Counted from the stretch's first letter, positions 1,998-10,300 are shown. The stretch: 58,238 nt of DNA from an uncultured Muribaculaceae bacterium (GCA_964447275.1 CAYURI010000005.1:1-58238), one strand, 5' to 3'. Notes: a model not told the origin generated them from the sequence alone. Numbers and translations are program-made.

Positions 1998-2072
1998 ATT
2001 TATTCCCATAAATCGACTAAATTCGCCTTTCAAAAGTGATATAACAGAGAACAAAAAAAGGAGGTGAATTTT

Positions 2073-2516
2073 ATGGATGAATACGAAATTAATGAGAAGA
2101 CTCTAGCAATTGTCCCTCTCGCAAATAACAAGACTAAAATTTTTGAGGATACAGATACTTACACAATTAACAAATCAGCAATTAAAATAATGGAAGATAG
2201 CTGTCAATTTTTTGGAAGTTCCTTATTAGGTAGGCAAAAAGGAACAACGAGATTAATTGGTGTTAGTCACAAAGCCCCAATAATAATTGAGGAAAGCAAA
2301 GAAATTATCTTTTTCCCAACTTCTTCACCAAGGAAAAGTATGTGTAGTTGGCTATCACTAAAAAATATTGATCGTTATTATACAAAGAATAAAAGCGTTC
2401 TTGTAAAATTTAAAAATAATACTCAAATAGAACTAAATATTTCATACGGGATAATCGATAATCAAGTGTTGAGAGCAACAAGATTAGAATCAGTGTTAAG
2501 AAGCCGAAAAAGTTAA
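2073..2516 (+). CDS. comK: Competence transcription factor ComK family protein
   Basis: YEINEKTLAIVP, KIMEDSCQFFGSSLLGRQKGT, HKAPIII, FFPTSSP...CSWL match the ComK pattern. ATG 2073 follows GGAGGTGA. Confidence 0.88.
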   Translation: MDEYEINEKTLAIVPLANNKTKIFEDTDTYTINKSAIKIMEDSCQFFGSSLLGRQKGTTRLIGVSHKAPIIIEESKEIIFFPTSSPRKSMCSWLSLKNIDRYYTKNKSVLVKFKNNTQIELNISYGIIDNQVLRATRLESVLRSRKS

Positions 2517-5633: not shown

Positions 5634-8048
5634 ATGGACAGAATAAATGAAAAAAACATCGTAGAGGAGGTTAAAAAAGCTTTTACTGATTACTCAATGA
5701 GTGTTATTGTTTCTAGAGCTATTCCGGACCTAAGAGATGGGCTAAAACCAGTTCATAGAAGAATTTTATACACAATGTATGAAAACGGTTTTACTCCTGA
5801 CAAACCATATCGTAAATGTGCTAAAACAGTCGGGGATGTAATGGGTAATTATCACCCACATGGAGATTCTTCTATTTACGAGGCAATGGTAAGAATGGCT
5901 CAAGACTTTAGTTATCGTTATATGCTTGTTGATGGACATGGTAATTTTGGTAACATGGACGGTGATGGAGCAGCAGCATATCGTTATACTGAAGCTAGAC
6001 TTTCAAAAATATCATTAGAATTACTAAGAGATATAAATAAAACGTCTGATTTCACCAAAAACTTTGATGAGACATTAGATGAACCGGTTGTTTTGTCTTC
6101 TAGATTCCCTAATATAATAGTTAATGGAACAATGGGAATTGCGGTCGGTATGGCCACTAATATTCCGCCTCATAATTTAGGGGAAGTAATAGATGGTTGT
6201 GTAGCATATATCAATAATCCAGATATTACATTGCCAGAACTAATGACTTATATAAAAGGACCAGACTTTCCAACTGGAGGAATAATTCTTGGTAATAGTG
6301 GGATTAAAAAAGCGTATGAAACCGGAAAAGGCTCAATAACAGTTAGATGTAGGGCCAGGATCGAAGATGAAAATGGTAAAAATCGTATTGTTATTAGTGA
6401 ATTGCCATATGGAATTAACACTCTAGATTTGAAAACCAAAATTGGTGAATTAGTAAGAAATAAAGTGTTAGATGGTATTTCTGATTACCATGATGCAACA
6501 GATTTAGATACAGGCGTTAACATTATTATCAGTGTTAAAAAAGAAGCTAATGCTAATGTTATATTAAATAACTTATTTAAACATACGCAGTTGCAGTCAA
6601 CATTTGGTATTATATTTTTAATGCTAGATCATGGCATTCCTAAGACCTTACCACTAAAAGATATAATTTCTAAGTATATTGACTATCAAAAAGAAGTAAT
6701 TATTAGAAGAACTAAATTCGATTTAGAAAAAGCTGAAAATAGGGTTCACATTTTAGAAGGCTTAAAGATAGCTTTAGATCATATTGATGAGATAATAAAG
6801 TTAATTAAAGCCGCTAAAAACGATGATGATGCTCAAAAAGGGTTACAAGAAAGATTTAATTTAACCGAAATCCAAGCTCAAGCTATTCTGGAGATGAAAT
6901 TAAGAAGATTAACAGGCTTAGAAAGAGAAAAGATTGAATCAGAGTTGAAGGAATTGCTAGAACTAATTGACAGCTTAAAGGCAATATTAGCTAGCGAAGC
7001 TAAAATTTTAGGTATTATTAAGGACGAATTGTTAGAAATAAAACAAAAATATGCTGACGAAAGAAGAACTGAAATAGACATGTCAGCAATCGAATACATT
7101 GAAGATGAGTCTTTAATACCTGAAGAAGAGATAATTGTAACACTTACTAACAAAGGGTATATCAAAAGATTAGCAATGGATGAATATAAGACCCAAAACC
7201 GCGGTGGGGTCGGTGTTAAGGGCATTACCACTAATGAAGAAGATTTTGTTGAACACTTGATTAACCTATCAACCCATGATTATTTATTGTGTTTTACTAA
7301 TAAAGGTAAGGTCTATCGCTTAAAAGGTTATGAAATTCCAGAATTTGGTAAACAAGCAAAAGGTTTACCAATAGTAAACTTAATTCAAATTGAAAAAGAC
7401 GAAACGGTAAATTCAATAATAAAATTAGCAAAGGATAACGAATATAAGCATTTGCTATTTGCAACCAAAAAAGGAATCGTTAAAAAAACAAGCATATCTG
7501 ATTTTGATAATATTCGTACAACTGGCAAGATATGTATAAGTTTAAGAGACGGTGATGAATTAATTGCGGTTAGAAAGACAACTGGTGAAGACGAGGTGTT
7601 ATTAGGATCATCTTTAGGCAGAATGGCCAAGTTTAACGAAAAAGATGTTAGAGTTATGGGCAGAACTGCTAGCGGTGTTAAAGGAATAAACCTAGGATTA
7701 GGTGATTGTATAGGAGCAGAAGTTGCTAATAGCAAACAGAGCATACTAATTGTTACTGAAAATGGTTATGGAAAGAAAACTCCTATAGAAGAGTACCGCT
7801 TATCAAAAAGAGGCAGTAAAGGCGTAAAAGCTTTAAGCATAACAGCGAAAAACGGTAATATTTCGTCTTTCAAAATTGTTAAAGATGATTCTGATGTAAT
7901 GATTATTACTAATTTTGGTACAGTAATAAGACTTCCTTTAGATCAAATATCAGAATTAGGAAGAGTTACACAAGGTGTAAGATTAATTAACTTAAAAGAA
8001 AATCAAAAAGTATCAACAATCAGTATAGTTGATAAATCGGCCGAATAA
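5634..8048 (+). CDS. gyrA: DNA gyrase subunit A
   Basis: [28 protein letters not shown] and the GyrA-box QNRGGVG, which separates it from ParC. Confidence 0.98.
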
Positions 8049-8058
8049 TTTAAAACAA

Positions 8059-8074
8059 TGTTTCACGTGAAACA
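8059..8074. other. parS centromere site 1 (inside a 30-bp perfect palindrome, 8052-8081, that also forms the gyrA terminator)
   Basis: Exact TGTTTCACGTGAAACA consensus. Confidence 0.95.
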
Positions 8075-8093
8075 TTGTTTTTTTGATACAAAT

Positions 8094-8109
8094 TATTTCC
8101 CGGGAAATA
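8094..8109. promoter_or_regulatory. Noc-binding site (NBS)
   Basis: Exact TATTTCCCGGGAAATA, matching the B. subtilis Noc-binding consensus, inside a 22-bp perfect palindrome 8091-8112. Confidence 0.8.
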
Positions 8110-8116
8110 ATTTTAA

Positions 8117-8132
8117 TGTTTCACGTGAAACA
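8117..8132. other. parS centromere site 2
   Basis: Exact TGTTTCACGTGAAACA consensus. Confidence 0.95.
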
Positions 8133-8170
8133 TAGGTTGATTAAAAAAAAATAAAATGCTATTATTTAGT

Positions 8171-8242
8171 GGTGCAACAAGCCCGTTGATAAATAGTCAG
8201 GACCGGAAGGTAGCAGCTAAATCATTTAAGGCTTGTGTGCAC
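8171..8242 (+). ncRNA. ffs: Small (4.5S-type) signal recognition particle RNA
   Basis: Conserved domain IV GTCAGGACCGGAAGGTAGCAGC closed by GTGCA-ACAAGCC / GGCTTGT-GTGCAC, followed by a T run; TGnTATTAT -10 just upstream. Confidence 0.9.
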
Positions 8243-8262
8243 TTTTTTAAAGGAGTAAAAAA

Positions 8263-8673
8263 ATGATACATCATTATTTTGATATAGCAATAAAAGAATC
8301 TTTAAAAGCTGAGAAAAAAGAAAGTGTACCAATTGGTGCAGTAATAATAAAGGATAATAAAATAATCGCTAAAGCCCATAACATTAATTATAAATCTAAA
8401 AAAGTTATGGATCATGCTGAAATTATATGCATTAAAAAAGCCTCTAAGCTTCTTGGCGACTGGCGATTAACAAATTGTGATATGTATGTTACTTTAGAAC
8501 CTTGTAATATGTGTAAAGAAGTAATTAAGGCATCCAGGATTAGAAATGTTTATTATTTAACTCCACAAAAAGAGCTTGTTTGCAAATCGCAAACAAAGTT
8601 CTTTGCAGTAAAAAACATTAATAGTGAATTAACTGAAAAAAAATTAAAAACTTTCTTTAAAAAAAGAAGATAG
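8263..8673 (+). CDS. tadA: tRNA adenosine(34) deaminase family protein
   Basis: VPIGAVI, HAE, TLEPCNMC zinc-deaminase motifs; next to ffs and dnaX as in Bacilli. Confidence 0.9.
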   Translation: MIHHYFDIAIKESLKAEKKESVPIGAVIIKDNKIIAKAHNINYKSKKVMDHAEIICIKKASKLLGDWRLTNCDMYVTLEPCNMCKEVIKASRIRNVYYLTPQKELVCKSQTKFFAVKNINSELTEKKLKTFFKKRR

Positions 8674-8713
8674 AAAATAAAATTATGATATAATTAATTC
8701 AGTGGGTGGGAAC

Positions 8714-10300
8714 ATGGAATATAAAGTTTTATATCGAAAATATCGTCCAGCCAGTTTTGGCGAAATCGTTGGACAAGATTATATTATAAACATTTTAAAA
8801 AAATCGATTATAGGCAACAAATTATCGCATGCTTATCTTTTTTCTGGGCCAAGAGGAACAGGTAAAACTAGTACAGCAAAGGTTTTTGCCAAAGCAATTA
8901 ATTGCGAGAACAATGAAAATGGTGAGCCTTGTAATAAATGTTCGTCTTGTATAGAATTTGATAATAGCCCAGATATTATTGAGATTGATGCTGCGTCAAA
9001 TAATGGGGTTGATGAGATAAGAGAACTTAGGAATAATATTAAACTCGTTCCTGCATTATCTAAATACAAAGTTTATATTATTGATGAAGTTCACATGTTG
9101 TCAATCGGAGCTTTTAATGCTTTATTAAAAACACTGGAAGAACCACCGGCACACATTATATTTATTTTAGCGACAACTGATGCTCAAAAAATCCCTGTTA
9201 CGGTTGTTTCTAGGTGTCAAAGATTTGATTTTCACCAGTTAAGTGTGGATAGAATATCAGAATATTTAATAAAGGTTTGCGAATTAGAAGGAATAAAAGC
9301 CGCTAAAGAAGCAACTGATGAAATAGCATATCTAAGTGATGGGGCAATGAGAGACGCCCTGGGATTATTAGATCAAATATTAGGATTAGTTAACAACGAG
9401 CTAACAATAAAAGATGTTGAAGGAATAATAAAAACCGTTTCTATGCAAAAACTTGAAGAGCTTTATGGTGCTCTTTATAATAATGACCCATTAATGATTT
9501 CGACAATTGTTAATAATGTTGAAAAAGATGGTTATGATTTTACTTCTTTTGTTAATAAATTAGTTAAGTTTTTAAGAGATAAAGCTCTTTTGATAAAAAA
9601 AGGAGACTTAAATAGCAAAATTAGCTTTACTAAAATAAAAAATTTGGTATTTAACTTAAATAAGATTCTATATAATAGCAAAACTGAAATTAGTCCATTT
9701 TTATTATTAGAAATGGAACTTTTAGATAATACCAGTGAAGAAGATTTAAAAGTAGCTTCGCCAGAAAATTTGGTAGAAGAAGTAAAACCAAAAGCAGTGG
9801 AGCAAAATGCTGAAAAACATGAAGAGGATCTATTGTTAATTGACGACTCAATAAAAAAAATTAGAATAAATAATTGCTTCGCCAAAGCTAATAAAGAGAA
9901 TCTTAATTTAAATAAAAAAACTTGGCTTGATTTCATAAATTATGTTGCAGAAAATGATTATAAATTGTGTGGGTTTGTTGTTGATAGTCAAGTTGCTGCG
10001 GCTTCCGATGCTTATCTTTTAATAACTTGCAGTAGTGATAGCCAAGCAGCCTTGTTTAATAAAAATAAAGAAAAAATTGAAAAAGCTTATTTAGAGTTTT
10101 CTAAAGAGAAGTATTTGTTGGTTCTCTTAACAAATGAAGAATGGGAAAGCTGTAAAACCAAGTACATAGAAGACAAAAAAAACAATATAGTTTATGAAAT
10201 TATTGAAGAAGAAAAGCCTAAGAAAAAAAATATTGCTGAAACTAAAATTGGTAAAATGGCTTATAAAATATTCGATGAAAAAAATATAAAAATACAGTAA
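8714..10300 (+). CDS. dnaX: DNA polymerase III subunit gamma/tau
   Basis: LYRKYRP, GPRGTGKT, EIDAASNNGVDEIR, IIDEVHML, SRCQRF. Start set at ATG 8714. Confidence 0.97.
   Translation: MEYKVLYRKYRPASFGEIVGQDYIINILKKSIIGNKLSHAYLFSGPRGTGKTSTAKVFAKAINCENNENGEPCNKCSSCIEFDNSPDIIEIDAASNNGVDEIRELRNNIKLVPALSKYKVYIIDEVHMLSIGAFNALLKTLEEPPAHIIFILATTDAQKIPVTVVSRCQRFDFHQLSVDRISEYLIKVCELEGIKAAKEATDEIAYLSDGAMRDALGLLDQILGLVNNELTIKDVEGIIKTVSMQKLEELYGALYNNDPLMISTIVNNVEKDGYDFTSFVNKLVKFLRDKALLIKKGDLNSKISFTKIKNLVFNLNKILYNSKTEISPFLLLEMELLDNTSEEDLKVASPENLVEEVKPKAVEQNAEKHEEDLLLIDDSIKKIRINNCFAKANKENLNLNKKTWLDFINYVAENDYKLCGFVVDSQVAAASDAYLLITCSSDSQAALFNKNKEKIEKAYLEFSKEKYLLVLLTNEEWESCKTKYIEDKKNNIVYEIIEEEKPKKKNIAETKIGKMAYKIFDEKNIKIQ

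Follow-up and report, generated by a model that had tools for sequence, protein, structure and literature searches.

What is the role of a cassette in which sites for two different ParB-family proteins alternate directly downstream of gyrA? In the 58,238-bp stretch of DNA that was analysed here (the window), two perfect parS sites enclose a perfect NBS, the site of Noc. ParB and Noc are paralogous CTP-switch clamps whose sites differ at two base positions, and the two proteins have been studied separately. Our analysis indicates that the cassette is probably a conserved origin-proximal loading hub for two paralogous ParB-family clamps. Moreover, some points had been missed in the first-pass annotation of this DNA: the cassette is a small example of a centromere found throughout a clade, the co-location of NBS with parS is common, not universal, and the Noc orthologue of the clade is without the membrane helix on which nucleoid occlusion depends.

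The slot that holds the cassette is bordered on the left by gyrA (5634..8048, + strand; NCBIfam GyrA equivalogs, 1118-1150 bits), which ends with a TAA stop at 8046-8048, and on the right by ffs, encoding the small SRP RNA (8161..8251, + strand; Rfam RF00169, 50.7 bits). Downstream of ffs follow tadA (8263..8673, + strand), dnaX, ybaB and recR. Exactly three sites are present in the cassette, each perfect and at the very coordinates reported before: parS-1 (TGTTTCACGTGAAACA; 8059..8074), NBS (8094-8109) and parS-2 (TGTTTCACGTGAAACA; 8117-8132), none of them assigned to a strand. parS-1 has the CAA/TTG flanks typical of the clade and forms the centre of a 30-bp perfect palindrome (AAAACAATGTTTCACGTGAAACATTGTTTT; 8052-8081, + strand), which begins four bases 3' of the gyrA stop and, in agreement with the earlier description of a palindrome followed by Ts, runs into a T7 tract at 8078-8084. 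The NBS is enclosed in a 24-bp palindrome (AAATTATTTCCCGGGAAATAATTT; 8090..8113), and parS-2 together with its A/T flank constitutes an 18-bp palindrome (8116..8133). Both parS sites are perfect copies of the 16-bp consensus TGTTNCACGTGAAACA, and the NBS is a perfect copy of TATTTCCCGGGAAATA (core ATTTCCCGGGAAAT), the sequence used in Jalal 2020. They are the sole copies in the window, as no further parS or NBS was found across its 58,238 bp with up to two mismatches allowed. By shuffling, 0.01 parS and 0.04 NBS matches are expected per window, and two parS sites occurred in 0/100 shuffles.

The window opens inside dnaA and the cassette lies ~7.3 kb from the 3' end of this gene, which makes the position of parS origin-proximal; the slot is conserved in relatives. 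GC skew is positive over the entire window, and the GC content is ~28%. DnaA boxes are not enriched inside the window. By analogy with two relatives (L123 and L124), in which DnaA-box clusters occupy the rpmH-dnaA gap, we assign oriC to the region upstream of dnaA. Independent metagenome assemblies reproduced positions 7850-8118 exactly, and the organism is present in bioreactor and wastewater metagenomes. Because parS is repeated, assemblies break at parS-2; short-read contigs from two runs stop inside the repeated parS at window position 8118. A spike of read depth over 8040-8140 is explained by palindromes that are common to many other members of the community.

To find out how widespread the arrangement is, 185,579 species genomes were scanned with the pattern parS-N{0,30}-NBS core, which returned at least 120 stretches. 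Among the matches listed, 119/120 occupy the same slot (gyrA / ffs-tadA-dnaX), the single exception being a 584-bp fragment. The ORFs flanking these 119 stretches are the window's own neighbours (gyrB, gyrA, tadA, dnaX, recR etc.), and their GyrA proteins are 61-77% identical to that of the window. The hosts are uncultured low-GC Bacilli; nearly all listed matches come from uncultured MAGs recorded as 'Bacilli bacterium', 'Tenericutes', 'Erysipelotrichaceae' or Clostridium sp. CAG:710, CAG:417 and CAG:1000. A centromere-like cluster after gyrA is present in well over a hundred species of uncultured low-GC Bacilli. Absence of the adjacency from relatives had been named in the first-pass annotation as a sign that it is incidental. 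The opposite was found, and as the arrangement is conserved in relatives we consider the adjacency not incidental.

In the listed loci, the gyrA-tadA gap contains 4.4 parS and 2.9 NBS per kb compared with 0.08 and 0.12 outside, so that NBS are ~25 times denser within the gap. parS is confined to the gyrA-ffs/tadA-dnaX intergenic spaces of these loci, and NBS is found elsewhere too. The first parS or NBS follows the gyrA stop at a median distance of 19 bp (109/109 listed loci that include the stop). ffs adjoins tadA in 17/18 relatives scanned, and the cluster lies mostly between gyrA and ffs; in some relatives it reaches or occupies the tadA-dnaX gap. Regarding the conservation of the triplet and its spacing, which was to be checked in relatives, the parS-NBS-parS core recurs in 20 species among the matches listed, but its spacers vary (5-22 bp and 7-41 bp) and the NBS is not universal. 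Nine species among the matches listed carry at least six strictly alternating sites, with up to 18 sites per array. The arrays consist of tandemly repeated units of 64, 75 or ~172 bp, each comprising one parS and one NBS. Neighbouring sites less than 50 bp apart, centre to centre, comprise 258 parS-NBS, 16 parS-parS and 16 NBS-NBS pairs in the listed loci, an excess of mixed pairs that is inflated, as at least 120 of the 258 follow from how the loci were selected.

Perfect NBS were also detected within the coding sequence of dnaX, in the part encoding a variable linker, in about 30 species among the matches listed (L004, L005, L007, L010, L016-L018, L020, L022, L024 and ~20 more loci). They are located at roughly residues 340-390 in the numbering of the window's DnaX; the window's dnaX itself (8702-10300) has none. 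Mostly they are read in one frame (..I-S-R-E-I..) and form a 24-bp palindrome, often with an A-run before it. Such a site could be an RNA hairpin or a Noc site that the linker tolerates. Inspection makes a signal for tau/gamma frameshifting seem unlikely, and this reading was set aside: the putative slippery run is overlapped by the palindrome, and no consistent stops result in the shifted frames.

Because the 120 listed loci had been selected for the parS-NBS pair, separate samples were used, in which the control loci for ASCERTAINMENT were picked by means other than this pair. Two loci found via DnaA homology (L123 and L124) carry parS directly after gyrA, with a palindrome and T-run, and no NBS in the gyrA gap. 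A metagenome scan anchored on the GyrA C-terminus yielded 80 loci. Neither parS nor NBS occurred in the 52 outgroup loci (46-49% GyrA C-terminus identity). The 28 in-clade loci (56-74% identity) correspond to ~15 lineages, of which 6 are mixed, 5 parS-only, 2 NBS-only and 2 without sites. Hence, the trait of the clade is a near-constant parS cluster after gyrA, and the co-location of NBS (~40%) is labile. In several mixed clusters of this unselected sample the NBS is 70-200 bp away from the nearest parS. The slot can also be NBS-only within the clade, as in L155:2084-2660 with five NBS and no parS after gyrA. Close relatives may differ as well: the GyrA C-terminus of L132, which has four parS, is 89% identical to those of L133 and L014, in which the series begins parS-NBS-parS. 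The existence of parS-only and NBS-only lineages and the differing NBS of close relatives argue that coupling of parS and NBS is not obligatory. The number of parS units varies (e.g. 5 to 7, 3 to 5) between contigs with 99-100% identical GyrA C-termini, which argues for arrays that grow and shrink from strain to strain; such differences were seen in L141-L145 and L147-L153.

Outside the cluster, scattered NBS occur about once per 26 kb of origin-proximal DNA, also inside dnaX. Perfect copies were noted in the comK-like/dnaN gap (L125:560-589 with two overlapping copies, L129:276-291 and L131:379-394) and in the mnmE/jag gap (L124:7440-7455).

Further insight came from the closest relative, L118, whose GyrA C-terminus is 87% identical to that of the window. 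Over the stretch that is delimited by the gyrA stop and the last base of parS-2, both sequences are 97.6% identical, compared with 79.9% for the gyrA 3' end (third codon positions 55%) and 71.5% for tadA. Neither the T7 tract nor any of the three extended palindromes has changed (100% identical), and the differences, three substitutions and two one-base indels, all fall within the two spacers. This comparison indicates that the whole cassette is under strong purifying selection. Across the at least 120 listed loci we counted 298 perfect NBS, 280 perfect parS and 0 parS/NBS chimeras; only 2-3 among ~580 sites mix both specificity positions. The flanks differ between the two classes in the listed loci: A/T is found at +/-1 in 98% of 279 perfect parS sites, and AAAT/ATTT in 74-85% of 293 perfect NBS, which results in a 24-bp palindrome. 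The sites of the window conform to both flank consensus sequences. Discrete classes with differing flanks are the pattern expected of two separate homodimeric readers. A single relaxed reader is not favoured, since such a reader should tolerate hybrid sites.

Which proteins may read these sites? In relatives, the genes to the left of dnaA are rpmH-rnpA-yidC-jag-mnmE-mnmG-rsmG, followed by one gene with ParB_N and HTH_ParB domains (L123:94-1323, L124:1932-3407, L125:10001-10948; proteins P0121-P0388). The window organism's own copy of this Noc-like gene falls outside the window. The Noc-like protein matches TIGR04285 nucleoid_noc with 280-287 bits versus 182 for parB_part; the score is under the 315-bit cutoff because an insert truncates the match. 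Its best PDB matches are the Noc structures 7NG0, 7NFU and 7OL9, ahead of Spo0J, and in these structure matches the clade's Q, K and R align with Q158, K164 and R186 of Noc. Judged by position and sequence, the clade's rsmG-adjacent protein is a Noc orthologue. Clustered at 50% identity, the best 150 matches of an exhaustive search include 148 Noc-like representatives. Q173 and R201 were present in every readable signature (63/88 aligned orthologues and 106/148 representatives), nearly all of which have K179, and position 184 is N, S or T; none is of ParB type. It was reported that parS binding requires the invariant R173, that Q173 and R201 with one permissive lysine (Q-K-x-R) are NBS-specific and that residue 201 is T or S in most dual binders obtained in the laboratory (Jalal 2020). 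Based on Q173/K179/R201 and this mutagenesis, the clade's Noc-like protein should read NBS and not parS.

In 130/148 representatives tallied, only 14-19 residues (mostly 16) precede PNRFQPR. With ~16 residues before this motif and a gene start near rsmG (38-46 bp after it), there is no room for an N-terminal amphipathic helix, and the 10-residue amphipathic membrane helix is absent from the clade's Noc-like protein (130/148 representatives tallied). The N-terminal helix is required for membrane binding of Noc and for nucleoid occlusion (PMC8429893). As the clade's Noc orthologue lacks it, classical nucleoid occlusion is not assumed here, and the protection of the division site that was proposed initially cannot be taken for granted. 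The protein (300-980 residues in total) contains an acidic disordered insert of 100-700 residues, whose best-conserved element is PN[KR]FFNxLE. This element may resemble the N-terminal helix of Noc, and the internal FFN motif could be a substitute for the membrane helix. In its fuller form the motif reads PN[KR]FFN[FYIV]LE[DS]E..NM and is followed by a small Noc-like C-terminal domain. AlphaFold2 predicts the insert including the FFN motif region to be disordered; a membrane helix relocated to PN[KR]FFNxLE found no structural support and was rejected.

A ParB of the parS-reading type was searched for by tblastn, with Spo0J and Noc sequences, and by comparing the family HMM with all ORFs. Neither search revealed an R173/G201 ParB in the 58-kb window or in any of the related loci analysed (~90 kb around oriC). 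ParB was also absent from the 8-kb loci of the listed 120 species and, in five relatives, from the 10 kb that flank the Noc-like gene to its left and right. The gene order rsmG-noc-soj-spo0J was not encountered in the five relatives: rsmG-noc is kept, and soj and spo0J are missing beside the Noc-like gene (L124, L125, L127, L129 and L131), which is followed by a convergent PBP gene, an rpoE-like gene, prfA and prmC. Typical neighbours of spo0J (Soj, YchF, Ssb and RpsR) gave no hits when probed in the window and the related loci. Next to the Noc-like/PBP pair there are two conserved small ORFs, neither of which resembles ParB; one of them weakly matches HARE-HTH. The search for parB and noc with their specificity residues, which had been recommended before, was thus successful for a Noc-type reader in relatives but not for a parS-type ParB. 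Nevertheless, a separate parS-reading ParB very likely exists, since more than 100 species have perfect parS sites in multiple copies.

In the most probable reading, the cassette would represent the organism's chromosomal centromere-like region, the minimal form of a clade-wide structure that is kept immediately 3' of gyrA, ~7-9 kb to the right of oriC. A canonical ParB would load on both parS sites, and the Noc orthologue, whose gene is known from relatives, would load on the NBS. Nucleation of each dimer would take place on the extended palindrome of its own type, after which the dimer would close into a CTP-dependent clamp and slide to flanking DNA; the origin region would then carry a ParB complex for SMC loading and segregation as well as a Noc-type complex. 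Actual binding, the separate ParB and a functional coupling at the cassette are what we infer here; the coupling might consist in co-condensation, mutual road-blocking or origin tethering. The parS-NBS spacing differs among species (5-22 bp), which argues against a fixed protein-protein geometry and against obligatory coupling. Coupling is favoured by the heterotypic short-range bias, by the amplification of two-site units and by a cassette that is frozen. Spo0J and Noc of B. subtilis were described to act together against premature Z rings, a precedent for joint function (PMC6852036). More tentatively, and with less confidence than in the hub as such, the parS-NBS unit may be the module of a bipartite centromere, in which the Noc without membrane helix but with an acidic insert was co-opted as a second clamp that co-assembles with ParB. 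Under this extension, Noc may have replaced ParB in the NBS-only lineages and could stand in for the missing Soj/ParA-linked operon via condensates or an origin-tethering FFN motif.

The strongest competitor to a coupled hub is co-location without coupling, which we regard as rather unlikely. Here, the gap would be a parS centromere and an insertion-tolerant space in which scattered intergenic NBS land and persist, or hitch-hike with duplicated parS units, and ParB and the Noc-like protein would act independently. NBS do occur elsewhere, about once per 26 kb, inside dnaX and in the comK-like/dnaN and mnmE/jag gaps; about one third of the unselected lineages are parS-only and two are NBS-only; the NBS component differs among relatives at 89% GyrA C-terminus identity, and it lies 70-200 bp from the nearest parS in several unselected mixed clusters. 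Against this speak the ~25-fold density of NBS in the gap of the listed loci, short-range neighbours that are overwhelmingly heterotypic in these loci (selected for the pair), nine species among the matches listed that amplify a unit of one parS and one NBS, and an entire cassette, extended NBS palindrome included, that is frozen in comparison with L118. A single reader, the rsmG-adjacent Noc-like protein serving both parS and NBS in a clade without a separate ParB, had been put forward in the first-pass annotation and appears improbable to us. Its appeal is that this is the sole ParB-family gene found around oriC, that no soj-spo0J stands beside it in L124, L125, L127, L129 and L131, that the window holds nothing ParB-like and that dual-specificity variants are obtainable in the laboratory (Jalal 2020). 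On the other hand, R173 is required for parS binding and most of the dual binders contain T or S at 201, and the family is uniformly Q173/R201. Hybrid sites, which a relaxed reader should tolerate, are essentially lacking among ~580 sites of the listed loci, be they GC and AA half-sites or parS/NBS chimeras, and the flanking preferences of parS and NBS differ. Furthermore, the absence of ParB refers to ~90 kb around oriC. With discrete sites, differing flanks and only a Q173/K179/R201 protein found, this proposal was not upheld.

Much less credit still is due to a role in RNA or transcription, with gyrA terminator hairpins and insulators before the ffs promoter and the parS/NBS identity as secondary. 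It would be in line with a parS-1 palindrome and T7 that fold at -13.4 kcal/mol directly after the gyrA stop, with the T-runs enriched at the first sites of the listed loci and with the z = -5.8 of the 121-nt region. But terminators do not require that the consensus sequences of two DNA-binding proteins be matched exactly in more than 100 species, nor do they require arrays with as many as 18 sites, a division into two discrete classes or NBS inside dnaX; moreover, the T-run is missing at 70% of first sites in the listed loci, and the strict terminator scan found none. That three AT-rich palindromes were juxtaposed by chance is practically negligible as an explanation: the AT-rich background alone speaks for it, against an expectation of 0.01 parS and 0.04 NBS per window and the recurrence of the arrangement at the same slot in more than 120 species along with its absence from 52 outgroup loci.

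The probable two-clamp hub can be compared with systems described before. The parS palindrome of the window (TGTTNCACGTGAAACA) is identical to the Spo0J/ParB site of Bacillus subtilis and of most bacteria; as there, several copies lie within ~10 kb of oriC, and CTP-dependent loading of a ParB clamp and recruitment of SMC are presumed. In B. subtilis about 8-10 parS sites are distributed over hundreds of kb. In contrast, a single intergenic slot 3' of gyrA contains all parS copies seen in the clade. They frequently form tandem arrays, have a consensus extended to at least 18 bp and alternate with NBS. Unlike in organisms with noc-soj-spo0J, the usual position of the ParB gene does not hold it. 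RacA of the spore-forming Firmicute B. subtilis, a dedicated protein with palindromic sites (ram) near oriC, acts alongside Soj-Spo0J in origin anchoring. The cluster of palindromes near oriC is similar in the clade, in which relatives possess spoIIR and spoIID, whereas protein family and site sequence are unrelated. The two genes are situated near the origin (L125:15657-16160, L125:19913-20800 and L127:15678-16184), and their presence in relatives suggests that at least part of this reduced-looking clade forms spores.

Nucleoid occlusion by Noc and NBS is established for Bacillus and Staphylococcus (Adams 2015; Jalal 2020, 2021; and Wu 2009, as related in the papers that cite it). The clade shares the 16-bp NBS TATTTCCCGGGAAATA, an rsmG-adjacent protein with Q173, K179 and R201, and scattered NBS copies outside its cluster. 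Its protein differs from Noc in that it is without the N-terminal amphipathic helix and helix alpha-2 (16 residues before PNRFQPR compared with ~39 in B. subtilis Noc), has N, S or T and not K at position 184 and carries an additional acidic disordered insert. NBS concentrated beside parS at the origin is undescribed for the Noc system. ParB-parS and Noc-NBS were used as orthogonal pairs without cross-binding on the same DNA in mParSpot and ParSite (PMC11109969, PMC11798528), which are engineered arrays at separate loci in human cells, while the clade shows natural interleaving at base-pair scale on the chromosome. Such synthetic labelling systems were the only side-by-side use of both pairs in the literature found. 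Our full-text literature searches returned no description of natural parS-NBS co-clusters, which agrees with the initial impression that the interdigitated arrangement had not been described.

The locus matters as a natural and deeply conserved one with ParB and Noc loading sites 5-30 bp apart, sometimes as amplified two-site units, and would allow one to ask whether adjacent sliding clamps block, insulate or co-condense. It also bears on the role of a Noc without membrane helix and on the rewiring of ParB and Noc in a lineage without the noc-soj-spo0J operon structure.

Besides, the palindromes might have side roles. In RNA the parS-1 palindrome forms a 13-bp hairpin (-13.4 kcal/mol, z = -3.9) followed by U7, and the 121-nt cassette region folds with z = -5.8. 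A T-run of at least 5 is found at 30% of first sites after gyrA versus 10% of other sites in the listed loci, and these first sites sit in longer palindromes than the others. A function of parS-1 as terminator, which had been proposed, is consistent with the hairpin, U7 and this enrichment, but the strict terminator scan detected no intrinsic terminator at the cassette. It is plausible that the parS-1 palindrome and T7 double as gyrA terminator here, not generally in the clade. The suggestion that the third site abuts the ffs promoter fared similarly: TTGATT-17-TATTAT with an extended -10 TG (8137..8165, + strand; 9/12 matches) begins 5 bp past parS-2 and is a tentative candidate for the ffs promoter, but such promoter-like matches are no commoner than in shuffled sequence. 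A further match, TTGATA-17-AATAAT (10/12) at window 8083-8111, overlaps the NBS with its -10 element. If this promoter is real, binding of the Noc-like protein would occlude it; equally, the match may be due to AT-rich chance.

The repeat-rich slot is also of practical relevance, since it breaks assemblies next to oriC in abundant Bacilli of gut, rumen and bioreactors and offers an easy sequence tag by which their origin region can be recognised. Among the clade's DnaA homologues, many entries are fragments of ~294 aa from short contigs, and this points to assemblies that repeatedly break within dnaA or to a start that is mis-called there. In addition, a ComK-family gene (window 2064-2516, + strand; Pfam PF06338, E = 4e-43) is located between dnaN and recF, a position normally filled by the small yaaA/rlbA gene in Bacillus, and it occurs at the equivalent position in L001, L123-L131 and most of the listed scan loci.
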